IMG/VR virus record: IMGVR_UViG_3300050033_000335
Span: 1 to 62,758 of that record
DNA: 62,758 nucleotides
Strand: one strand, 5' to 3'
Source of the DNA: a virus
Lineage: Duplodnaviria; Caudoviricetes
Below, piece by piece: positions 4,453-51,375 of the stretch. Position numbers and translations under genes: made by a program. The notes under the pieces are model-generated. The model worked only from the letters and a program-made list of their open reading frames with translations, made no database searches and was not told the origin of the DNA. The first letter of the stretch is position 1; every line of letters begins with the position of its first letter.

Positions 4453-4557
4453 TATTGACTGCACAAGAATGTCGGGAAGCTGGCTGTCCAGGGATAGATA
4501 GTGATAGCGGGATTCGGTGCTGGCAAGTTAAGGGTTGCCCAGCTTGGGAGGTTAACC

Positions 4558-4761
4558 ATGGCCAAGTTAATAGAAAAGTGGAAAGAAACGGAATGGAGCA
4601 AGCGGATTTGGGCTGATGGTCCCTCGAAGTCCCCAAAGGTTCTTTGCCGAGTATGTAATGAGCCAGTAAATCCATTAAATCATTATCAACGCTTTGATGA
4701 GAGTCTTTGTACTTCTTGTTATTGTTGGAGCTTTCAGTATATACGAGGATACGGATTGTAA
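4558..4761 (+). CDS. small zinc-finger-like hypothetical protein
   Basis: GGAGG RBS before ATG 4558; CRVC...CTSC. Confidence 0.55.
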   Translation: MAKLIEKWKETEWSKRIWADGPSKSPKVLCRVCNEPVNPLNHYQRFDESLCTSCYCWSFQYIRGYGL

Positions 4762-4771
4762 AGGAGGTATT

Positions 4772-5335
4772 ATGCATCATATAAATCATACCCTGTTTTT
4801 GGATGCTTATGCAAAGTCATTAGTCCTTCCAAAACTTAACTCAGCAACTACAATGGGAGTTAATCAATTACTCTCTTTTATAGAGGCCGATCCTTGTATT
4901 AACGACCTACGATGGGGGGCATACTTGTTGGCTACTGCTCTTTGGGAGACAGGCCATACATACTTTCCTATAGCTGAATATGGTCGGGGTGATGGCCATC
5001 CGTATGGGAAACCTGCGGCTAATGGCCAGATCTATTACGGGCGTGGATATGTCCAGTTGACCTGGGAAGATAATTACAAGCTAATGTCTCAGCTACTTGG
5101 AGTTAATTTGCTGGATGATCCAGATCTGGCCTTAGTTCCAGAACATGCTTATAAGATTATGAGTATAGGCATGCGGTGCGGAGATTTTACTGGGGTTAAC
5201 CTGCATAGGTTCATTGATGATGACTCTTGTGATTATGTTAATGCTCGCAGAATTATTAACGGTAGAGACCAGGCCGAACGAATTGCCGGTTATGCTGTAT
5301 CTATTCATGATGCTTTGTATGGGGCCGTGATATGA
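4772..5335 (+). CDS. endolysin, glycoside hydrolase family 19 (chitinase-like)
   Basis: AYLLATALWET, YYGRGYVQLTWEDNY, ARRIING; AAGGAGG RBS before ATG 4772. Confidence 0.9.
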   Translation: MHHINHTLFLDAYAKSLVLPKLNSATTMGVNQLLSFIEADPCINDLRWGAYLLATALWETGHTYFPIAEYGRGDGHPYGKPAANGQIYYGRGYVQLTWEDNYKLMSQLLGVNLLDDPDLALVPEHAYKIMSIGMRCGDFTGVNLHRFIDDDSCDYVNARRIINGRDQAERIAGYAVSIHDALYGAVI

Positions 5336-5496
5336 AAGTTTTATGCCCAGACCCAGATTGTGGTGGTGCATTAATATATTGCGCTAATTCAGGGCTAGAA
5401 TCCCTTACATATCATTGTAGTAAATGTAAAGCCAAATGGGTGGCCCATAAGGAAGAAAAGGAGATAATTGATGGAATGCCTGACATTATTGCTTGA
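5332..5496 (+). CDS. small zinc-ribbon hypothetical protein
   Basis: ATGA overlap with endolysin stop; CPDPDC...CSKC. Confidence 0.5.
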   Translation: MKVLCPDPDCGGALIYCANSGLESLTYHCSKCKAKWVAHKEEKEIIDGMPDIIA

Positions 5497-5725
5497 TTAC
5501 AATGCATGGCTTGATTGGGAAATGGAAGTTTGCGATCTTGATAATGAAGATGAAGACTCTTATGCAAAACGTACTGAACCAAAGAAGTTTCCCTGCTATA
5601 TAGGAACTGAAATAGTGGGCTGGGAGGATGGCCCTAATGGAGAGGAGAATGTCGGTCAGCCATTATTTGCTCCGGTTTTCTTCTATGAAGAAGATCTAAA
5701 GAAGATGTTGGAGGAATTGAAATGA
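5471..5725 (+). CDS. acidic hypothetical protein
   Basis: AAGGAG RBS, ORF in operon context. Confidence 0.6.
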   Translation: MECLTLLLDYNAWLDWEMEVCDLDNEDEDSYAKRTEPKKFPCYIGTEIVGWEDGPNGEENVGQPLFAPVFFYEEDLKKMLEELK

Positions 5726-5922
5726 TTATTAAAGACAATATTGAATGTTCAATGAGCACGTGCATACATTGTTATAAGGGTGAATGTTTTCATCTTGATC
5801 CGAACATTGGGTATTCAGAAACTGATAGCCGATGCGGGTCTCTTGATAAAGGAACAGGATCAGCTAAGAGCAAATCCGGGTCTGCGGGAAATAGCCCAAT
5901 GATTATGGTGATAGGAGAGTGA
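5722..5922 (+). CDS. Cys-rich hypothetical protein
   Basis: GGAGG RBS, ATGA overlap. Confidence 0.55.
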   Translation: MIIKDNIECSMSTCIHCYKGECFHLDPNIGYSETDSRCGSLDKGTGSAKSKSGSAGNSPMIMVIGE

Positions 5923-5931
5923 ACTAAAAGG

Positions 5932-5960
5932 TTTACTTTTTAACCAGAATTTGATATAAT
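5932..5960 (+). promoter_or_regulatory. sigma70-type promoter for portal operon
   Basis: TTTACT-17 bp-TATAAT with TG extended -10. Confidence 0.8.
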
Positions 5961-5983
5961 ATTTAAGATTATTTAGAGTGCTA

Positions 5984-6039
5984 AACAGGATTATAGGAAG
6001 CCGAGTCACCCATCTAGGGGTGACTCGACTTTTCTTTTG
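5984..6039 (+). terminator. 56-bp leader element with intrinsic-terminator hairpin, copy 1
   Basis: AAGCCGAGTCACCC-loop-GGGTGACTCGACTT followed by T tract; 55/56 identical to 12991-13046. Confidence 0.8.
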
Positions 6040-6058
6040 TAGTTTAGAGGAGACGGCT

Positions 6059-7879
6059 TTGATTAAAAGATCTAATCAAAATACCCACGAAAACCTCGGA
6101 TCGGTAGTACGCTCTAAAGCCAAGCTTCAGAGGGTTAAAAATATGAGGATCACTTCAGCAGGAGCTGGAGGACGAGGAGATAGAGCAGCTGCTGCTAGTG
6201 TGCCATTTTATTCAAATAACCCCGAAACTTTTACAAATCCGCTAGAAAGATGGCGCGAGTATGCGTTGATGTACCAGACTTCGTGGGAAATTCGAAAGAT
6301 AGTCAATATCCCAGTAGATGACGCTCTACGTAAACCGCCTACGCTAAAAGGAATTTCAGATGAAGCCGGTACTATCCTAAAGAAAAAATTAGATAAGCTG
6401 CAGTGGATACCGGTTACTAAAAGAGCACTTAAACTGGAACGCTTGTTAGGCGGTTGTCTTCAATTTATGGGGTTGGAAGCTGATAATGATGATTCATCTC
6501 AGCCATACCATCCAACCGAAGGTAAAAAACTGTTATTTATGAATTCTATTCCTATATCTAGAATCTCTAGGATGAATTGGTCAACAGATCCATTGTCTGC
6601 AAGTTATATGAGACCATCTTCATTCTATGTAAATAATATCGAAGTTCATGTCTCAAGATGTCTTATATGGGATGGATCTCCATTATTTGATTGCAACGAT
6701 TTTGCACTGACTAACTATAGAGCTAATCTGGCTGGCTTTGGAAATAGTGTTATTGGTTGTTTGTTTGATGATGTAGTTATGGCATGCGGGACTAGGCAAG
6801 CAGCTTATCAAATGGTGCAGATGACTGGGGCCATTATAGCTACTATCGATATGCTTCAGGAGATAGGTGGAACTGCCCCAGGACAAGCCAAAGTAAAACA
6901 ACTTGAGCAGATGATTAATGATTTATCTGTTTATAGGGCAACCTTTTTAGCTGGAGATAAAGTTAAAGTCGAATCATTTAACCAGCAATTCGGTTCAATA
7001 CCTGAATTACTTCTAATGTATCTTCAAGTTCTTTCTGCGGCGTCGGACATTCCTGCTAGTCGTTTCTTAGGACAAGCTCCAGGCGGTCTCTCTACAGATG
7101 ATAGATCGGGGCTTGAAAACTATTATAACCAAATAGATGCTTATCAATCTGAACGCATTACACCCCAGTTTATACGGCTATGTGATGTAATAGGATACGC
7201 TGAAATACCAAACTGGGAAAATGAGAGAAAAAAATTAGAAATTGAATGGCCACCACTCTGGAATGAGACAGCAAAAGAGGAAGCAGAGCGAGCAGGTTTG
7301 ACTATTGCCAATGTACTTCAATTAGTAGATGCAGCACTCATGGGTGAAGAGGCTGCTATTGGGGAAATTAATGCTAGAGGAATTCTGGCCACTAAGTTGG
7401 AGAAGTCCGACCTGGAATTACTACAGAGCGCTCAAGATGCCCTTAGCAGGCACTTGGATCTTCCTAATAGTGGTAGTAGCCTCGAAGGAAAAACACCTTC
7501 TACAAATGATTCTAGGGACAATCCTTTTAATAAGCAGCGAGATGAAGAGGAAGATCCAGGTAAGCGGTCTTTTCCCGGTGGGACAAGTGGTGATCAGAAG
7601 TCCAGCCTACAACGGCTAAAGAATATGGCCAAAATCCAGAATGATCTTTCCGACTTTATGCTTAAACATCTAGTCAAAGAAATAGATTACGATCCAGATG
7701 CCTTTGATCTAAATGAAATAAAAGCTGGTTATGTAGTTGAACAGGAACATGCAGATATAACTAAAGGTGAGCCGGAGAAAGTAATGCGAATAGTAATGGC
7801 TCACATGACTGAAAAGAAAGATTATTATTCTGAACTAGAAAAGATGGAACATGAATCGGAACCTGTAGAGTCAAAATAA
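6059..7879 (+). CDS. portal protein (DUF1073-like) with C-terminal DUF5661-like domain
   Basis: MYQTSWEIRKIVNIPVDDALR, EVHVSR, SAASDIPASRFLGQAPGGL, LENYYNQI, IEWPPLW; GAGGAG RBS before TTG 6059. Confidence 0.9.
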   Translation: MIKRSNQNTHENLGSVVRSKAKLQRVKNMRITSAGAGGRGDRAAAASVPFYSNNPETFTNPLERWREYALMYQTSWEIRKIVNIPVDDALRKPPTLKGISDEAGTILKKKLDKLQWIPVTKRALKLERLLGGCLQFMGLEADNDDSSQPYHPTEGKKLLFMNSIPISRISRMNWSTDPLSASYMRPSSFYVNNIEVHVSRCLIWDGSPLFDCNDFALTNYRANLAGFGNSVIGCLFDDVVMACGTRQAAYQMVQMTGAIIATIDMLQEIGGTAPGQAKVKQLEQMINDLSVYRATFLAGDKVKVESFNQQFGSIPELLLMYLQVLSAASDIPASRFLGQAPGGLSTDDRSGLENYYNQIDAYQSERITPQFIRLCDVIGYAEIPNWENERKKLEIEWPPLWNETAKEEAERAGLTIANVLQLVDAALMGEEAAIGEINARGILATKLEKSDLELLQSAQDALSRHLDLPNSGSSLEGKTPSTNDSRDNPFNKQRDEEEDPGKRSFPGGTSGDQKSSLQRLKNMAKIQNDLSDFMLKHLVKEIDYDPDAFDLNEIKAGYVVEQEHADITKGEPEKVMRIVMAHMTEKKDYYSELEKMEHESEPVESK

Positions 7880-43742: not shown

Positions 43743-44114
43743 ATGGGTGAAAAGAAGAGTGGCCGAGTTTTTATTCCTCAAGAACCAATGCGGAAAATAG
43801 ATGGCCGCATGGTCTCTATTATGAATTTTAATAATGCTAGAAAATTTGGTGAGCCAATAATTCTTTGCCAGACAGGGCCAGCTGCATTAAATACCATGCC
43901 AACTACCTGGGGGCTAAAGGATGCACTAAGAGATTTTTGTGACGAAGATTATTTAATTTGTGTAGGCGATCCTACTTTAATTGGAATGTCATCTGCAGTA
44001 GCTAGTAATGCCAATAGGGGAAAGATAAATTATTTGAAGTGGGATAATGAATTGCGGATGTACATAGTTGTTAATTTTGACCTGTTCCAGAAGTTAAACC
44101 AATTGGAGGGTTAA
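43743..44114 (+). CDS. conserved phage hypothetical protein
   Basis: DYLICVGDP...LKWD motif; RBS. Confidence 0.75.
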   Translation: MGEKKSGRVFIPQEPMRKIDGRMVSIMNFNNARKFGEPIILCQTGPAALNTMPTTWGLKDALRDFCDEDYLICVGDPTLIGMSSAVASNANRGKINYLKWDNELRMYIVVNFDLFQKLNQLEG

Positions 44115-44117
44115 AGC

Positions 44118-44837
44118 ATGTCTAAAAAGGATTTACTATTAGATGAGATTATGGGAACAATTGAGGAAGAAAATGTTGAACCAAGTAATCTAAAGAATGA
44201 GGGACTTCAGCAGGTGGCAGAACTTGCAAAAAGACAACTTAACCTACTGGGAACTACTTTCGAGGGTGAGCAAATTACTAAAGTTCCCAGTCAATCTGCT
44301 ATTGGCGATTTAATGAAATGGGCTAAAGAACAGGGAGTTGGCTCAATAGATCCTGAACTGTTTAATAAGGACTTGTCTATTTCAGACTTAGCTGGAATGA
44401 TCTTATACCGAATCCAGGAATTACGGACTCTTTCTGAAGTAACTATTCCGGAATTAATGGCCTCGCTTGGTGGTATGTCTGAATTTAAACTCGCTTCTGG
44501 ATTTGTAGTCAAGGTACAGCCTGATCTTACTGCGGCAATCAAGAAGGGTAGTGAGGATGACGCAGCAGATTGGCTTTCATCTAAAGGCTTCGGTGATATT
44601 GTTAAGGATGAATTAAGTATAACGCTGGGAAAAGAGGATAAGAAGATGGCTATAGAATTTAAGAATTTAGCCACTATACTTGGTATCCCTATTTCAGAGA
44701 AGATAGGCGTACACTGGGCTACTCTTAAAGCATTAGTAAAGGAACAACAGGGCCGAGGGGTTGAATTTCCGGAAGAGTGCTTTCAGATTTACAATTATAA
44801 TAAAACAGAGATTAAACCTGCGGGGAAAAAGAAATGA
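44118..44837 (+). CDS. phage replication-module protein (precedes SSB)
   Basis: IPELM, WL...GFGDIVK, VHWATLKALVKE. Confidence 0.75.
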   Translation: MSKKDLLLDEIMGTIEEENVEPSNLKNEGLQQVAELAKRQLNLLGTTFEGEQITKVPSQSAIGDLMKWAKEQGVGSIDPELFNKDLSISDLAGMILYRIQELRTLSEVTIPELMASLGGMSEFKLASGFVVKVQPDLTAAIKKGSEDDAADWLSSKGFGDIVKDELSITLGKEDKKMAIEFKNLATILGIPISEKIGVHWATLKALVKEQQGRGVEFPEECFQIYNYNKTEIKPAGKKK

Positions 44838-45161
44838 CTAAATATTTTTGTGATAGATGCCAGAAGGAAGTTAACAGTAAAAAATTGCTTTTAATACCGG
44901 ATTCTGACTTTTCATATCCAAGTGGAAGTAATAAAGTTGCATGGGAGCTATGTAAAGAATGCTTAGAAAGTTTTGAAGTATGGGTAAAGATGAATAACTA
45001 AAGGGAGGTGATTCAGTGGCAAAGGGTTTTATATTTATCAACTATTATGATACACTTGGGCAATATGTATTTCAAATGGTAATGGAATCCACCTTTTTTC
45101 CGTCGCGGAGGGACGGTCAGTCAATATACCTGCAATTTAGCGCCTAACTAAGGAGATAGAA

Positions 45162-45971
45162 ATGGGAAAAGTTGTTAAGGAAGAATCCAAAGCAGTAGCG
45201 ATTAAAGAAGCTGCCTCAGTACCAATGGAAAGCCAGTTGGCAGCTATGATGGAAGAAGATTCCGGAGTAGGTTTCGAGAATGGTACGGCAGCCGATTATG
45301 CTATCCCCTTCCTGCGGGTTATTCAGAAGGGCAGTCCTGAGTGCGATGAGGCAAGTCCAGAATACGATGAGACAATGCGTCCTGGTATGTTCCAGAATAG
45401 CGTTACAGGCAAGCGATATGACGGCAAGAAGGGTGTGCTTTTTGTCCCGGCTATGTATCTCCGGGTGGGAACCAAATGGGCTTCAAATAAGGCTGATGGT
45501 ACCGGATTTAGGGGGCAGATATCTGCAGCGGATCTGGATCGGGTGCTACTTACCTGTGAGCGTGACGAGAAAGGCCACGATATTCTTCCAGATGGGCTTA
45601 TGCTAGTAGATAATCGGCAATGGTTCGGCCTTACTCTTGACGACGAAGAAGTATCCCCTGTATTATTTTCTCTTAAAGCCACCCAGATTAAGAAGTCAAA
45701 GAAATGGTATGCTTTTGCCAACGGACTTCGGCACAATGGCAAACCTACACCACTATATTCCCAAGTCTACCGTATTACTACTGTCCCGGAAAAGAATGAC
45801 CAAGGCGGCTGGATGGGTGTTACAATTACCCATGAAGGTACTGTGCCAAATGTGGAAGTAGCTCTTGAAGCTAAGAACTTCCGGGGGATGATCCTCAGCG
45901 GCGCGGTCAAGCCTGTCGAGCCTGATATTGAAGAATCTACCGGTGCCGAACCCTTTAACAATCAATTTTAG
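45162..45971 (+). CDS. putative single-stranded DNA-binding protein
   Basis: AIPFLRVIQKGSP, TQIKKSKKW, EKNDQGGW, acidic tail ending in Phe. Confidence 0.75.
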   Translation: MGKVVKEESKAVAIKEAASVPMESQLAAMMEEDSGVGFENGTAADYAIPFLRVIQKGSPECDEASPEYDETMRPGMFQNSVTGKRYDGKKGVLFVPAMYLRVGTKWASNKADGTGFRGQISAADLDRVLLTCERDEKGHDILPDGLMLVDNRQWFGLTLDDEEVSPVLFSLKATQIKKSKKWYAFANGLRHNGKPTPLYSQVYRITTVPEKNDQGGWMGVTITHEGTVPNVEVALEAKNFRGMILSGAVKPVEPDIEESTGAEPFNNQF

Positions 45972-45987
45972 TAGGGTCGATTTCAAT

Positions 45988-46040
45988 GCCCTAGCTCCGA
46001 AGCGAATCGACCTTCGACAACTAGGGGCTAGGGCTTTTTT
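45988..46040 (+). terminator. intrinsic terminator with large structured loop
   Basis: GCCCTAGCTCC / GGGGCTAGGGC stem then T6. Confidence 0.7.
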
Positions 46041-46052
46041 GAGGAGATTATA

Positions 46053-46322
46053 ATGCGTAAAATTCAAGATGTCTCCACTGAGGTACTTCAGGACCAGCTT
46101 CAAGCATTAAATAGTGAAGATCTTGATCTAAATATATGTAGTGTAGATACTGTAGATACTACTTCTTGCAATGGTCCTGGAGAGCAGCTGCAATTTTGTT
46201 ATAATTGCTCGTATGTCTGGTTTGAAGGAGATGTATGTCGATTAGATATAACAGAAGAACAGCGGCTGAAGTGGATTGACGGAATAACTGAGGAATTGGC
46301 GACTAGACGCATTGTTTCATGA
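46053..46322 (+). CDS. hypothetical protein
   Basis: GAGGAG RBS; coupled to primase. Confidence 0.65.
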   Translation: MRKIQDVSTEVLQDQLQALNSEDLDLNICSVDTVDTTSCNGPGEQLQFCYNCSYVWFEGDVCRLDITEEQRLKWIDGITEELATRRIVS

Positions 46323-47920
46323 GTCTCGGCGAAAGATTTCATACATTATTCATGGGGCTTGAAAAGTCTCATGGAACCTATAAAGTCGATGACTCAAAGA
46401 AGCCAGCTGGCGATAAGGTAAAAGGGAAAGCTCTTACTGTTCATGCATCAGTTACAAATGCGTTATGGGATAGGCATCTGGCTGGAGAGATTGGTATTGG
46501 GATTATTCCCATTCGAGAGGATGGGACTTGTCTTTGGGGAGCTATAGATGTAGATGATTATACTACTGATCATATAGAATTAGGGCAAAGAATTAAAAAT
46601 ATTGGGGCGCCGCTATTAGTATGCCGAACTAAAAGCGGTGGCGCTCATATGTATATGTTTTTCTCTGAGCCTATTCCCGGAACCTTACTTAGGGATAAAT
46701 TAAGAGAATGTTCAGTAGCTCTTGGGGTATGGAAAAAAGAACTAGAGATTTTTCCTAAACAAAAAGCATTAGAAACGGATGCTACTGGTAATTGGATTAA
46801 TATGCCTTACCAGCATGCAGATTTTACTACAAGGTATTGCATTCATAATGAAAAACCTCTTGCAGCTGAAGAATTCTTAACTCTGGCTGAATCTTATAAA
46901 GTTAACCTTCAATTTATTCAATCTTTTATACCTAAACTTGCTAAGAATGATGATAATCTTGATGATGAATGGAGTGAGGCACCGCCTTGTCTGGAATACT
47001 TAGTTAAAAACGGCTTCCCGGAAGGGTCTAAAAACAATGCTCTTTTATCCTTAGCTGTGTATGCCCGAAAACGATATGAAGATTGGAAGACTAAAGTTTC
47101 AGAATATAATACGGCATGGATGAGAGGTAGTTTTGAAGAAGTAGCAGGTATTATTAAAAGTATCGGGAAAAAAGAATATAGATATAAATGCGGGGATGTA
47201 CCGCTTTGGGAACATTGTAATAAAGAGCAATGTAAACGGCGTAGATTTGGAATTGGAGAAACAAGAGGAGTAGGCCGACCATCTGCAAGTGCAGCTGATA
47301 AAGACGCAATACTCTGTGTATTAGAGGAAGTGGATCGGCCGATAAGAGTATATCGTCCGCCTGATGGCAGTAGCGATGAGCCTCAATGGATTTTTCCCAT
47401 GTCCAATGGGCATCAACTGGATGTAACTCTGGATATGATATTAGATCAAGGGCGATTTTTACGAGAATATACCAAGCGATTTGAGCGAGTACGGCTCCCA
47501 GTTCCGGCACCTAAATGGCAGATCCTAGCGAATGAGCTTATGGCTGAAGCTGAGGTAATGGAATTACCAGCGGATGCTGGTCCGGAAGGGCAATTAATGT
47601 TACATTTAGAAGCATTCTGCCTAGGGAAAGTTACCGGCCTGGATAAAGATGAGATTACACTTGGTCATCCATGGACAGATCCAGATGGAATAACTTGGTT
47701 TAGGAGCAAAGACTTTCTTAAATACCTTAATCAAGAGCGATTTAAAGCATTTAAATTAAATGAATTATATGCAATCTTTAGGAAGCATGGGGGTAAGAAT
47801 GACAAATTTATGATTAAAAAGAAATGCTGGGGTGTATGGGGATTCCCTGAGTTTCAACATCAGACTGAGGATTTTGCTTCAATAGTAATTCCCTTAAAGG
47901 ATGAAGAAGAGAGGTTTTAA
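46319..47920 (+). CDS. primase (AEP superfamily)
   Basis: WGAIDVD, RTKSGGAH, EIFPKQ, GNWINMPY, PPCL and Cys cluster. Confidence 0.85.
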   Translation: MSLGERFHTLFMGLEKSHGTYKVDDSKKPAGDKVKGKALTVHASVTNALWDRHLAGEIGIGIIPIREDGTCLWGAIDVDDYTTDHIELGQRIKNIGAPLLVCRTKSGGAHMYMFFSEPIPGTLLRDKLRECSVALGVWKKELEIFPKQKALETDATGNWINMPYQHADFTTRYCIHNEKPLAAEEFLTLAESYKVNLQFIQSFIPKLAKNDDNLDDEWSEAPPCLEYLVKNGFPEGSKNNALLSLAVYARKRYEDWKTKVSEYNTAWMRGSFEEVAGIIKSIGKKEYRYKCGDVPLWEHCNKEQCKRRRFGIGETRGVGRPSASAADKDAILCVLEEVDRPIRVYRPPDGSSDEPQWIFPMSNGHQLDVTLDMILDQGRFLREYTKRFERVRLPVPAPKWQILANELMAEAEVMELPADAGPEGQLMLHLEAFCLGKVTGLDKDEITLGHPWTDPDGITWFRSKDFLKYLNQERFKAFKLNELYAIFRKHGGKNDKFMIKKKCWGVWGFPEFQHQTEDFASIVIPLKDEEERF

Positions 47921-48015
47921 GAAATTGAGATATTTAGTGGTTTATCCATCACATAATAAATATTTTAAGGAGCACGCACGCATTAGGCGCGAGTGTAAAA
48001 TTCGGGGGGCTGAGT

Positions 48016-49445
48016 ATGAATAATCAGACGGTCATACTTGGCCCCCCCGGTTGAGTACTGGTAAATCCTTCGAATTGCTTAAGATAATAGATATGGAATT
48101 AATTAATGGGATAGATCCTAGTAGAATAGCAGTCTTGACTTTTACTAAAAAGGCCAACGAAGTTATTTTAACTAGAGCTATTGAGAAATTTGGGTTTAAT
48201 GAGAAAGATGCACCATACTGGGTGACTCTTCACGCACTAGCATATCGTAGACTAGGGCTACGACGTAATGAAGTAATGGGACCAAAGAATTATACTGAGA
48301 TAGGAAATGCTCTTGGCCTTACATTTGGAGGGAGTGTTGCTGCAATTGAGGAAGGATTTTATGGAGGTAGAAATAAAGGAGATAGATACCAATTTTTAGA
48401 TGGCTTTGCTCGTAACAGAATGATCACCACTGAAGAAGCATTTAGACTATGCGCAGGAGATGGTGATGAAGAATTAAATAAATTTGAGATGAGAAGATTT
48501 AGCAATACACTCCTATCCTATAAAAAGGATAGAGGCATCTTGGATTTTACAGATATGTTGGAAATTCCTCAAGGGTCAATAGATGTTGATGTGGTAATAG
48601 TAGATGAGGCCCAGGATCTTTCAACCTTGCAATGGGATTATTTACGGCGGGTAGTAATTCCTAATGCGCAAAGAGTATATATTGCAGGAGATGACGATCA
48701 AGCTATTTACCAATGGAGTGGAGCGGATGTGGTGCAGTTTCAAACTCTTCCTGGACGTAGAGTAATCTTGGATCAAAGTCATAGAATCCCACGAGCTATT
48801 CACCAATTAGCTGAAAAGATTTCTTTTACAATTAAGACTAGATGTGCTAAGATGTATAAACCAATGGATAAAGAAGGTTTAATTCGATATTATAGTGATC
48901 CTGAAGATGTGGATTTATCGGTATCTGGTACATGGTATCTTTTAGCCCGTAACTCATATTTGCTTTCTCAATTAATTACAATAGTTCGTGATCAAGGATA
49001 TACTTATTCAATTCGAGGAGAAAGTGCAATTATTAGTAAACACGTAGATGCAATCTTAGCTTATGAAAAATGGCGTAAAGGTATAGAACCATCTACAGCA
49101 GATAAGAACCTGGTGGAAAAATTGTCTACTCACCCTTGGCCCGGTACTATCTGGCATGAGGCTTTAGATAAGATACCTAGGAACGAGCGAGATTGGTATA
49201 TAAGCGTACTTCGACGTGGGGGTAGTCTAACTAAAGCTCCTAGAATTAATATAGGCACAATTCACTCTGTTAAGGGCGGAGAAAGTGATCATGTATTACT
49301 TATGACAGATATGAGTATGGCAACATGGCATGCAGCTGAAATGAATCCTGATGCAGAAAAGAGATGTTGGTATGTGGGCGCTACACGAGCACGGGAATCA
49401 CTTCATATTATCCGTGCACAAAGGGATACAGCATGGGATCTGTAA
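48016..49445 (+). CDS. UvrD/Rep-like superfamily 1 helicase, interrupted at Walker A (recoded or pseudogene)
   Basis: MNNQTVILGPPG-stop then TGKS in another frame; TFTKKA, VDEAQD, GDDDQAIY, QSHR, TIHSVKGGE, YVGATRA all intact. Confidence 0.9.
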
Positions 49446-49723
49446 GTGGGAAAGCTAAGAAATTATTTTCAAACTGTTATATGTTAGATGGAACCCCAGT
49501 TAGATGCCCCTATTGTGGCGGATATAGAATCAGAACTAAAGTTAGGGATAGCTCAGATGGAATAAATTCGCTAGAGGAAGAATATTATTGCGGTGAATGT
49601 GGTATTATCCTGGCCTTTTGGTCTTATGGCCATTTTGACACAGAATTACGGGAAGATCCTCCGAATATAACTAAGGCTGAATTAACTACGCAAAATACAG
49701 CCGGTCTTTTGGAGGATGAATGA
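49433..49723 (+). CDS. zinc-ribbon hypothetical protein
   Basis: CPYC...CGEC. Confidence 0.6.
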   Translation: MGSVSGKAKKLFSNCYMLDGTPVRCPYCGGYRIRTKVRDSSDGINSLEEEYYCGECGIILAFWSYGHFDTELREDPPNITKAELTTQNTAGLLEDE

Positions 49724-49868
49724 TTTGGAAAAATTCATGTAAAAATTGCGGAATAATAATTAAATGGAAAGCTGATAGTTTTTTGATGCGGCTGATAAAC
49801 ATCCAAAAGGCTGGGTATATGACCCTGTTTTAAAAGGTATTGTCTGTCCAAAATGTAAGATAGTTTGA
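49720..49868 (+). pseudogene. small zinc-finger gene split by a frameshift in a T6 run
   Basis: CKNC half from ATG 49720; KGW...CPKC half in the -1 frame after 49779-49784. Confidence 0.45.
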
Positions 49869-49879
49869 GGGAGTATAAA

Positions 49880-50194
49880 ATGCGTAATACAGACAAAAGA
49901 TTACTTAATGATAAGGAATTCTCTAATGCTGACAAGGAATTCTCTAATGCTGACAAGGTATTTCCTACACTAGAGGAAGTTGAAGAATACCTCAAGCAAG
50001 ATGAAGATAAGATCCGACTGTTACTAGGAATTATAGACGGTAAGATAAAACTAAACTTTGGGGATCGGCCTGTGAAGTGGATAGCATTTACTCCGGATCA
50101 GGCTGCTCGGATAGCTTATGATATACTGGTACTGGTGAAGAAATTAACTGTTCCGGAAGAGGAACAAGGAGAAAAAAGGAGTATTATAATATGA
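49880..50194 (+). CDS. hypothetical protein
   Basis: GAGGGAG RBS; 21-bp duplication encoding DKEFSNA. Confidence 0.7.
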   Translation: MRNTDKRLLNDKEFSNADKEFSNADKVFPTLEEVEEYLKQDEDKIRLLLGIIDGKIKLNFGDRPVKWIAFTPDQAARIAYDILVLVKKLTVPEEEQGEKRSIII

Positions 50195-50342
50195 AATATT
50201 GTAAGTTCAAAGTAACGGAATTAAAAGAGATACTCAATGTAATATATAAACATGTGGGGCTATATCCTACTGACGATCTGATTATTGAATTAAAAATTGA
50301 GAGAAGAATAAAAAGTGAAATATTAGCAAGAGGATTGTCAGT

Positions 50343-50693
50343 ATGACTGTCTCTAAACGGCCAGCTAAAGTGCCGAGTTTTACTCTTCAGAAAGAGACTC
50401 ATTGCGGCCCAATGTATATAATTGTAGGTCATATTAATGGAAAGATAATAGAGGTATTCGCTATACTAGGGAAGGCTGGCGGTTGCGGGTCCGCAGTGGT
50501 TGACGGTATGGCTAGGATGATCTCATATGGACTTCGTAGCGGAATGGAACCAGATAGAGTAATCAAAGGTATGAGCGGTATTCAATGCCACCAGGGGCCA
50601 GATACCTGTTGTAACGCTATTGCTTTAGCAGTTAAGGAAGTAATGAATGAATTGGAGGAAATGGAAATATGTGAGGAGGGCTATGACCGATAA
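50343..50693 (+). CDS. stand-alone TSCPD-domain protein (NrdJb-like)
   Basis: KRP, THCGPMYI, GKAGGC, RMIS.GLR.G, GIQC, TCCNAI. Confidence 0.85.
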   Translation: MTVSKRPAKVPSFTLQKETHCGPMYIIVGHINGKIIEVFAILGKAGGCGSAVVDGMARMISYGLRSGMEPDRVIKGMSGIQCHQGPDTCCNAIALAVKEVMNELEEMEICEEGYDR

Positions 50694-51375
50694 CATCTGG
50701 GAACAAATAGTTACTAGCAAATTATCTATCTCAACAGAAATTGCTCAACCCAAAACTAATAAATCAGTTATACCAGATGAATGTTTATCAGCTTTTGCTC
50801 CCATGTTCCTAGATACAGAAACATCGGGCATGATCCTTAGACGTATGCCCATGAATCATGTTTGCCAACCTGATATTATCCAGATAGCAATGATATTGGA
50901 TCATGCTGATGGGTATTTTAGCCGCTCTATGATTGTAAATCCTAGTGATATTAATTCAGACTGGGAATTAGATCCGCAGGCTGAAGCTGTACATGGTATC
51001 TCGAAAGAGCAAATTCTGGATGAAGGTATTCCCAGTAGAGCAATGCTGGAAGAGGTAAAGTATATATTGTCACGATCTTCAGTAATGGCCTGTCATAACT
51101 GGGGGTTTGATTCGCAAATGTTAGCCATAGCATTTAATCGAGCAGGTGATACTAAGAGCGCAATGAAGATCTTGAATGGAAAAAGATATTGTACAATGAT
51201 AGCAAGCACAAATCTCTGTAGGCTTCCAGGTAAGTTCGGAAATTATAAGTGGCCTAAACTAGAGGAACTTCACCAATTTTTATTTATGGAATCAGTACAA
51301 GGAGCACATGATGCTCTAAATGACACAATAGCAATTCGAAGATGCTATCATGAGATGAGGAGAATGGGAATATGA
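50683..51375 (+). CDS. DEDDh 3'-5' exonuclease (DnaQ-like)
   Basis: LDTETSG, CHNWGFD, YKWPKLEEL, AHDALND. Confidence 0.92.
   Translation: MTDNIWEQIVTSKLSISTEIAQPKTNKSVIPDECLSAFAPMFLDTETSGMILRRMPMNHVCQPDIIQIAMILDHADGYFSRSMIVNPSDINSDWELDPQAEAVHGISKEQILDEGIPSRAMLEEVKYILSRSSVMACHNWGFDSQMLAIAFNRAGDTKSAMKILNGKRYCTMIASTNLCRLPGKFGNYKWPKLEELHQFLFMESVQGAHDALNDTIAIRRCYHEMRRMGI

Follow-up and report, generated by a model that had tools for sequence, protein, structure and literature searches.

A stop-led insert in the Walker A motif of a phage superfamily 1 helicase gene: a candidate endonuclease-linked cassette for short-range translational bypass

Introduction

Natural programmed bypassing, in which a translating ribosome skips part of its message, has very few accepted examples outside the T4 gene 60 element and yeast mitochondria. 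Here, we describe a site in a peat-soil phage at which a UvrD-like superfamily 1 (SF1) helicase gene is split within its Walker A motif by 5 nucleotides (nt) that begin with an in-frame stop codon. The site lies in the linear virus record IMGVR_UViG_3300050033_000335, which is analysed over its whole length of 62,758 bases (hereafter the window) and is estimated to be 84% complete.

The closest described system is that of phage T4, whose gene 60 contains a 50-nt insert that shields the phage from cleavage by its own HNH endonuclease MobA, encoded next to it. The cassette and MobA together make up a single mobile element, and some phages have lost the nuclease but still carry the cassette (Manning & Atkins, bioRxiv 2022.08.31.505936); the work on gene 60 and MobA is also credited to Bonocora et al. 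2011, as cited in PMC5009743. According to the same preprint, take-off and landing codons of T4-type cassettes are matched or wobble-equivalent, a GAG mini-Shine-Dalgarno sequence is found about 6 nt 5' of the landing codon, and the 5' stem-loop is reported to be unconserved (bioRxiv 2022.08.31.505936). It also describes homing-endonuclease insertions that split genes into two working parts, as in T4 gene 39/60 and Aeh1 nrdA (bioRxiv 2022.08.31.505936). A current idea is that pairing of the mRNA as it leaves the ribosome drives forward bypassing (bioRxiv 2024.12.09.627546).

Three further systems are relevant. Short mobile coding inserts named 'byp' elements occur in the mitochondria of Magnusiomyces capitatus (PMC5009743; bioRxiv 2022.08.31.505936). 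Synthetic +5 and +6 stop-hops have been obtained in E. coli (Weiss et al. 1987, as cited in PMC5009743), and the 2016 review that cites them presents no natural in-frame stop-hop as known, adding that shorter natural counterparts of bypassing had long been expected (PMC5009743). Finally, 'savior' indels are compensated by low-level frameshifting, for example in herpesvirus thymidine kinase (PMC5009743).

Results

The leader frame of the window helicase begins at ATG 48016-18, continues through the codons AAT AAT CAG ACG GTC ATA CTT GGC CCC CCC GGT (to 48051) and ends at TGA 48052-54, encoding MNNQTVILGPPG (Table 1). Omission of 48052-56 joins the final GGT to ACT GGT AAA TCC and restores GPPGTGKS. 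Because of the flanking GT, the insert could equally be drawn as GTTGA or TTGAG. No single reading frame of this gene holds a contiguous Walker A motif (GxxxxGK[ST]), GPPG and TGKS being 5 nt apart and in different frames. A -1 slip on the run of seven C (C7 run, 48042-48048) would produce GPPRLSTGKS. The remainder of the gene is a long open reading frame (ORF) at 48051-49445, in the -1 frame relative to the leader, with 464 codons counted from TTG and the start L/M-S-T-G-K-S. Its Pfam matches (PF00580, 4.2e-19; PF13361, UvrD_C, 1.1e-8; PF13538, 1.7e-6; PF13245, AAA_19, 4.3e-9) identify the product as a UvrD/Rep-like SF1 helicase with N- and C-terminal UvrD domains, and none of the 49 columns that are invariant in an alignment of 40 family sequences is altered in it. 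Direct reading of the sequence confirms what a preliminary description of this DNA had said of the site (leader, TGA, and the removal of 5 nt that gives GPPGTGKS) and reproduces the product it gave for the -1 slip; its statement that all downstream helicase motifs are intact agrees with the invariant columns and the 462 open codons. Decoding of the TGA as an amino acid was rejected for the window, because the two helicase parts are out of frame with each other and the phage uses TGA as a normal stop, at the end of 14 of 51 long ORFs.

The insert is present in contigs from two sequencing runs (X#; IMG/VR loci and family proteins are denoted L### and P####). In run X3, which is near-identical to the window and may be close to its source sample, a 24.6-kilobase (kb) Logan contig spans 47600-48600 with 0 gaps; in run X7, from another study and another year, a contig covers 48040-48195, again with 0 gaps. 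The window protein's 90%-identity cluster has 5 members, recorded by NCBI, ENA, JGI/IMG and Logan, and the same insert-bearing phage was found in several peat data sets, none of the listed sets with this phage being RNA. In run X7, the ends of overlapping Logan contigs fall exactly on the C7 run (48040-48048), and runs X5 and X8 hold no contig across 47981-48265; low depth or variation at the run may be the cause.

The insert is more than chance, since other phages have related stop-led inserts in this motif. In L001, a 63-kb IMG/VR contig whose helicase is 49.9% identical to that of the window, GGC is followed by TGAATTGAGT and ACA GGT AAA: a 10-nt insert (TGA plus 7 nt) at the same codon boundary, which places the helicase body in the +1 frame. 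The corresponding order in the window is GGT, TGAGT, ACT GGT AAA, with the body in the -1/+2 frame, and TTGAGTAC is common to both. L463 and L464, two IMG/VR contigs from different metagenomes (helicase 35% identical), carry an in-frame 6-nt insert one codon earlier: CCG, TGACTG, GGG TCC GGA AAA. Here (L463:1-400, L464:2940-3030) TGA and CTG stand between the second Pro codon and the Gly codon of Walker A (FGPP*LGSGKT, the asterisk being the stop). In all three insert types, TGA lies immediately 3' of the last correct codon.

Protein records point to additional cases. Most of the 120 best database relatives have M...(I/L)GPPGTGKT at their start and a length of 465-480 residues, and about 15 of the 120 begin just past Walker A. 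The N-terminus of P0029 reads ...AELSTGKT, P0077 starts with MSTGKT and, in cluster look-ups, so does P0126, while P0123 starts in the wrong frame and runs into ...VSTGKT; judging by this N-terminus alone, its insert would be 4 nt long. Ser before T-G-K is diagnostic of an insert, which encodes it, because intact genes have Gly there, and all 108 intact relatives read G.[PG]G.GK[ST]. We placed the 143 family proteins of at least 400 residues in a FastTree tree, leaving out the N-terminal columns: 108 are intact, 7 have S-T-G-K and 28 are N-truncated, which makes 35 of 143 without an intact motif at the start. On this tree, no fewer than 17 changes are required to explain the split between intact and not intact, and the S-T-G-K forms are spread over 5 lineages, with the caveat that truncated calls may have other causes and that identical proteins with different called starts sit in two groups. 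The N-truncated proteins (P0009, P0014, P0021, P0024, P0034, P0047, P0052, P0055, P0058, P0059, P0068, P0075, P0078, P0090 and P0093 with their cluster mates), some of which come from 40-56 kb contigs, may represent further breaks of the same kind. Two 90%-identity clusters mix N-truncated and intact members (P0034 with P0127, P0047 with P0128), and L164, 83% identical to the S-T-G-K protein P0077, is uninterrupted.

At the DNA level most family loci are uninterrupted: 81/82, 79/80, 55/64 and 76/83 in four sets, in which the loci counted neither as intact nor as L001, L463 or L464 lie too near a contig end to judge. Searched with blastn, cultured phages gave no match to the region, and tblastn returned relatives of at most 34% identity. 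Among the matches listed for the shared insert motif in IMG/VR (at least 117 stretches), the only helicase case was L001's own contig and the rest were chance matches, so that scan is uninformative on insert frequency. IMG/VR searches for the contigs of P0077, P0090, P0123 and P0133 found more distant relatives only, and genome contigs contributed a single family member (40% identity), the other matches in that scan being cellular genes of the UvrD/Rep-like type. Between window and L001, nucleotide identity is modestly higher in the cassette part (51/61 aligned positions) than in the rest of the gene (868/1270); we do not count this difference as evidence for transfer. A three-way DNA alignment of the cassette regions was uninformative.

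A strong predicted hairpin lies 5' of the break. In the window, G48004-A48019 would pair with U48032-C48047 in a stem of 16 base pairs (bp) with two G-U pairs, and L001 and L464 also have strong predicted hairpins, ending one to four bases before the take-off codon. Folding was compared over the 56 nt that end at the last correct codon of each gene: the free energies are -28.9 kcal/mol for the window (z -5.6), -33.8 for L001 (z -6.3) and -23.5 for L464 (z -4.2), as against a mean of -8.1, a minimum of -18.9 kcal/mol and a minimum z of -2.77 for the equivalent 56 nt of 250 uninterrupted loci. The strong 5' hairpin is thus found in 3/3 interrupted and 0/250 uninterrupted genes (Fisher p 4e-7). 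The hairpins of the window and L001 look homologous; they differ by one G-C to C-G swap involving the third base of a Pro codon, which with two sequences is anecdotal. At the insert itself a mini-hairpin of only 4 bp is predicted for the window, with C48048-U48051 pairing to A48057-G48060 and UGAGU as the loop; its equivalent in L464 has 6 bp.

Two of the three interrupted genes have an endonuclease gene as upstream neighbour. A 143-residue HNH_3 protein (5.3e-8) lies between primase and helicase in L001, its stop overlapping the helicase ATG, and L464 has the same layout with a 138-residue HNH_3 protein (1.3e-16) whose stop overlaps the helicase 5' end. These HNH proteins are 49.6% identical and the two helicases 34%, which suggests that the endonuclease has moved between phages. 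For comparison we took 223 de-duplicated family loci with at least 600 nt upstream (L464 was dropped as a duplicate of L463) and considered HNH_3-like proteins only. BLASTP with the L001 and L464 HNH proteins matched L001 only; a local profile of 14 HNH sequences picked up a further two loci, both uninterrupted, so that HNH_3 genes stand upstream in 2/3 interrupted and 2/~221 uninterrupted loci (Fisher p 7e-4). The junction between primase and helicase seems to be a favoured landing place for free-standing endonucleases. The 26 IMG/VR loci with relatives of the L001 HNH protein adjoin this helicase family nowhere except on L001's own contig.

The downstream frame appears to remain under selection. 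We defined 138 columns as conserved (80% or more among intact relatives) and examined pairs 6-10% diverged within interrupted or truncated lineages, assuming that both members carry the break. Of the 43 residue differences between P0021 and P0126, 1 falls in a conserved column (p 2.5e-6), and of the 28 between P0059 and P0129, 0 do so (p 3e-5); the values for intact control pairs are similar. By this measure, purifying selection is persisting in the interrupted lineages.

The long ORFs of the window all lie on the + strand (G+C content 41%), and a replication module at 43743-51375 surrounds the helicase (Table 1). Primases of the PF22548 family also occur at L001:593-2155 (6.7e-16) and L464:642-2228 (1.7e-11). 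Downstream of the interrupted helicase, L001 encodes a DUF932 protein (5698-6711, 3.6e-40), and in L464 a family A DNA polymerase (4476-6356) comes after it. The small ORF between primase and helicase in the window starts within the primase end and stops, at 48021-23, just beyond the helicase ATG; it may be a translational coupler. It may also, as a weak suggestion, be the remnant of a lost HNH gene: the sole basis for this is the peptide EHARI, which it shares with the C-terminus of the L464 HNH protein, and BLASTP of this ORF against the HNH proteins gave no significant similarity (E 0.17 and 1.1).

Table 1. Features of the interrupted helicase gene and its surroundings, in window coordinates.
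Feature	Coordinates	Strand	Basis and remarks
Pam3 gp34-like protein	45162-45971	+	Replication module
AEP-type primase, upstream neighbour; designated AEP-TOTE-type	46319-47920	+	Pfam PF22548, 7.9e-15; replication module
40-codon ORF filling the primase-helicase gap	47901-48023	+	ORF list
Hairpin 5' arm; holds G6 run (likely ribosome-binding site) and helicase ATG	48004-48019	+	Predicted fold
Leader reading frame, then stop TGA	48016-48054	+	Sequence read directly and ORF list
Hairpin 3' arm; codons V-I-L-G-P-P with the C run, one base short of the take-off codon	48032-48047	+	Predicted fold
GGT (Gly), last correct codon, proposed take-off	48049-48051	+	Read directly; L001 equivalent GGC, L464 equivalent CCG
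TTG in helicase frame, overlapping TGA; possible reinitiation codon of the split-gene alternative	48051-48053	+	ORF list; L001 TTG, L464 CTG
5-nt insert TGAGT	48052-48056	+	Read directly; predicted loop of 4-bp mini-hairpin
AGT, near-cognate landing triplet that would restore GPPGTGKS	48054-48056	+	Read directly; L001 has the same AGT before its ACA
UvrD-like SF1 helicase body, ACT (Thr of TGKS) to TAA, 462 stop-free codons	48057-49445	+	ORF list and Pfam
GGT, matched alternative landing codon, 4 nt past GAG; product would be GPPGKS	48060-48062	+	Read directly; same layout in L001
Zinc-ribbon protein, phrog_2993	49364-49723	+	Replication module
TSCPD-domain protein	50343-50693	+	Replication module
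DnaQ-like exonuclease	50647-51375	+	Replication module

Discussion

We see an even chance that this site is a minimal translational-bypass cassette linked to a homing endonuclease, of the T4 gene 60/MobA kind, with the endonuclease absent from the window. A free-standing HNH homing endonuclease would have inserted between the primase and helicase genes in phages of this family. It would probably cut the conserved helicase DNA that encodes Walker A in phages without the endonuclease, the carrier's own helicase copy being protected by a short insert that starts with an in-frame TGA. During translation of the window gene, the ribosome would stall when UGA enters the A site, its peptidyl-tRNA(Gly) being paired with GGU 48049-51, move forward by 5 nt, re-pair on AGU 48054-56 and resume decoding at ACU 48057. 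The forward movement would be favoured both by the hairpin (48004-19 with 48032-47), as it refolds behind the ribosome, and by UGAGU being looped out. In the general form of the hop, the peptidyl-tRNA would leave GGU, GGC or CCG with UGA in the A site and re-pair on AGU, AGU or CUG, respectively, with 2/3 positions matching, and GPPG(T/S)GK(S/T) would be restored in all three genes. In a variant, landing would take place on the matched GGU at 48060, 4 nt past GAG, and give GPPGKS. The window phage would then have kept insert and hairpin and lost the endonuclease gene, which leaves an orphan cassette.

The comparison with gene 60 and MobA concerns architecture, not homology to MobA or its cassette. 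As in T4, it is an essential replication gene that is interrupted, close to its 5' end and by a short non-coding insert, which in the window stands at an invariant Gly codon, and an in-frame stop directly follows the take-off codon (GGT TGA in the window, GGC TGA in L001, CCG TGA in L464). The HNH gene immediately upstream in L001 and L464 has its counterpart in MobA, a likeness that does not extend to the window; T4-type cassettes can likewise retain the insert after the endonuclease has been lost, as the window apparently has, and show the same scattered, recent-looking distribution among close relatives. Structured RNA around and 5' of the take-off codon is predicted here as well. The candidate cassette would work like that of gene 60, but it differs in gap length, apparently in codon matching, in the nascent-peptide signal and, in the window, in the nuclease. 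The insert is 5 (or 6, or 10) nt long, not 50. The window's AGT agrees with the take-off codon at 2/3 positions, and the matched GGT at 48060-62 would yield GPPGKS. The stem-loop holding take-off codon and stop is predicted to have only 4 bp in the window and 6 bp in L464. The nascent-peptide signal of gene 60 takes up about 30 or more residues before take-off; the leaders here are only 12 (window), 14 (L001) and 19 (L464) residues long. The GAG of the window (48053-55), unlike the T4 mini-Shine-Dalgarno sequence, abuts AGT and lies 4 nt before GGT 48060. The host gene is an SF1 helicase split in Walker A instead of a topoisomerase, and the 5' hairpin, unconserved in T4-type cassettes, is very strong here and specific to the interrupted genes.

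The other systems share single features with these sites. Inserts of the byp type are about 27-55 nt and thus longer. Like the inserts described here, byp elements are short mobile coding inserts that ribosomes skip and for which imperfect take-off and landing matches are tolerated; they differ in being mitochondrial, in having an unused codon instead of a stop in the A site, and in lacking an endonuclease link. In the synthetic stop-hops, the peptidyl-tRNA leaves the codon before a stop and re-pairs a few nt downstream; CCG UGA CUG in L464 has this very layout (+6), and the window would need +5. Those hops were engineered and of low efficiency, whereas the present sites are natural, recurrent and equipped with a dedicated hairpin. 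Savior indels offer the likeness of an indel that protects the virus and is kept because a little recoding yields enough protein. The thymidine kinase case, however, concerns a single base in a G run and protection from a drug, and the inserts here are stop-led, have their own RNA structure and probably protect from a nuclease.

Several observations weigh against a bypass cassette linked to an endonuclease. The proposed landing triplets are near-cognate and unmatched (GGU to AGU, GGC to AGU, CCG to CUG), and a nascent-peptide signal like that of gene 60 is unlikely because only 12 residues precede take-off. The NTG codon in the helicase frame at every break fits reinitiation equally well. Interrupted genes are available as DNA in three kinds only, the other cases being known from N-termini called by gene finders. 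HNH genes also stand upstream of two uninterrupted helicases, at L030:908-1471 (HNH_3, 7.2e-11) and at L054:935-1471 (HNH_3, 6.7e-4; 19.7 bits, below the Pfam cut-off), and the endonuclease screen covered HNH_3-like proteins only. A search with PF13392 and PF01844 over the whole 62.8-kb record (84% complete) found no HNH gene in the window. Finally, the hairpin could have other roles: since the inverted repeat exists in the DNA too, it could act at that level, or it could merely hide the ribosome-binding site and the ATG.

One mechanism would have to serve the +2, +1 and 0 frames of the three genes, which excludes a simple frameshift as a shared explanation; a hop fits, and of the mechanisms considered, it and termination-reinitiation at NTG are the two that fit all three DNA cases. 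Bacteria and phages commonly reinitiate translation after a short ORF whose stop overlaps the next start, and the gene could accordingly be split and translationally coupled: the leader would end at TGA 48052-54 and translation restart at TTG 48051-53, with as products a 12-residue peptide (strand beta-1 and GPPG) and a 464-residue M-S-T-G-K-S protein, which cooperate or of which the larger has a different role. The stop/start geometry suits this well (T-TGA/TTG-A at window 48051-54, TGA-A-TTG in L001, TGA-CTG in L464), gene callers begin P0077, P0126 and P0136 at M-S-T-G-K-T, and the endonuclease-split T4 gene 39/60 and Aeh1 nrdA provide a precedent. In SF1 helicases, beta-1 is the central strand of the RecA-like fold, to which the P-loop also belongs. 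The large piece would lack this strand and half of the P-loop, its 12-residue partner would be very small, no Shine-Dalgarno-like sequence lies ahead of TTG in the window, CTG in L464 is a poor start codon, and the strong hairpin just before the stop would be left without a role. We favour the hop over reinitiation because the large piece alone lacks the central ATPase strand, the hairpin fits current ideas on bypassing and the architecture mirrors that of T4, and we hold a split gene to be fairly unlikely. An ordinary programmed -1 frameshift on C CCC CCC (48042-48048), with the junction peptide VILGPPRLSTGK and a helicase containing GPPRLSTGKS, appears highly improbable. Read in the leader frame, GGC CCC CCC contains a heptamer that fits X XXY YYZ perfectly, a shift to -1 would reach the helicase frame, the stop comes one codon after the slippery run, and in L001 a +1 shift would even give G-ELST-GKT with the canonical GxxxxGKT spacing. 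In the -1 product, however, Pro would occupy the first Walker A position and the loop would be two residues longer, a form found in 0/108 intact relatives. A -1 shift also cannot be the shared mechanism because L001, which has no slippery run, needs +1 and L464 is in frame. The strong structure here, moreover, is 5' of the heptamer, and in classical -1 sites it is 3'.

The insert might instead be a protective change or a repair scar at the cut site that kills the helicase, which the phage would tolerate at least briefly. The break in the window is undatable, its nearest relatives with an intact motif being only 57-60% identical, and the mixed 90% clusters (P0034/P0127 and P0047/P0128) would mean, if truncations mark breaks, that breaks come and go quickly. 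Against this, 462 downstream codons are open with 49/49 invariant columns kept, and in interrupted or truncated lineages diverged by 6-10% the conserved columns are spared as much as they are between intact pairs. TGA stands right after the last correct codon in 3/3 insert types, where chance would place any stop in 3/64 per independent case, the hairpin separates 3/3 interrupted from 0/250 intact genes, and the insert-bearing phage was seen in several peat data sets. An inactivated gene is, in our judgement, distinctly unlikely. Least credible is an error of sequencing or assembly, which the preliminary description had also entertained and for which we see next to no probability. A C7 homopolymer adjoins the site and the X7 contigs break at 48040-48048, but TGAGT cannot arise from a homopolymer miscount, the 5 nt are present in the contigs of both X3 and X7, runs from different studies, the members of the 90% cluster were recorded by NCBI, ENA, JGI/IMG and Logan, and related inserts occur in unrelated assemblies (L001 and, from two metagenomes, L463/L464).

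With respect to function, the preliminary description had proposed a gene 60-like passage of the stop-led insert, and this part has gained strong comparative support from recurrence, the hairpin (3/3 against 0/250), the HNH gene upstream (2/3) and selection. A break within this motif does recur in homologues, through 5-, 10- and 6-nt inserts with TGA after the last correct codon. The specific hop from GGU to AGU has become one of several routes, beside landing on the matched GGU 48060 and reinitiation at TTG 48051, and a purpose in regulating helicase output is unsupported, as the endonuclease link points to target-site protection like that of T4. Its alternative of a mobile-element scar comes close as regards a mobile-element origin, but we consider a functional cassette the better description than a scar.

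The full-text literature, in a search whose coverage ends at subscription journals, yielded neither a bypass in a helicase Walker A motif nor short natural hops linked to an endonuclease. With rather less confidence than we have in the cassette itself, and somewhat doubtfully, we propose that these may be the first natural short-range stop-hops: HNH-carried cassettes of about 4-10 nt in the Walker A motif of phage SF1 helicases, driven mainly by a strong hairpin that refolds just behind the take-off codon rather than by a nascent peptide, one of which, in the window, would have outlived its endonuclease. If true, a bypass of 5-10 nt accompanied by a simple strong hairpin would offer a much smaller model than gene 60, and one much easier to work with, for studying how ribosomes release a codon and slide. 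It would also affect annotation, in which such genes are now called N-truncated helicases or pseudogenes. For the phages themselves, it would mean that neither an intron nor an intein is needed for a homing endonuclease to protect its own target within a protein motif that hardly varies.

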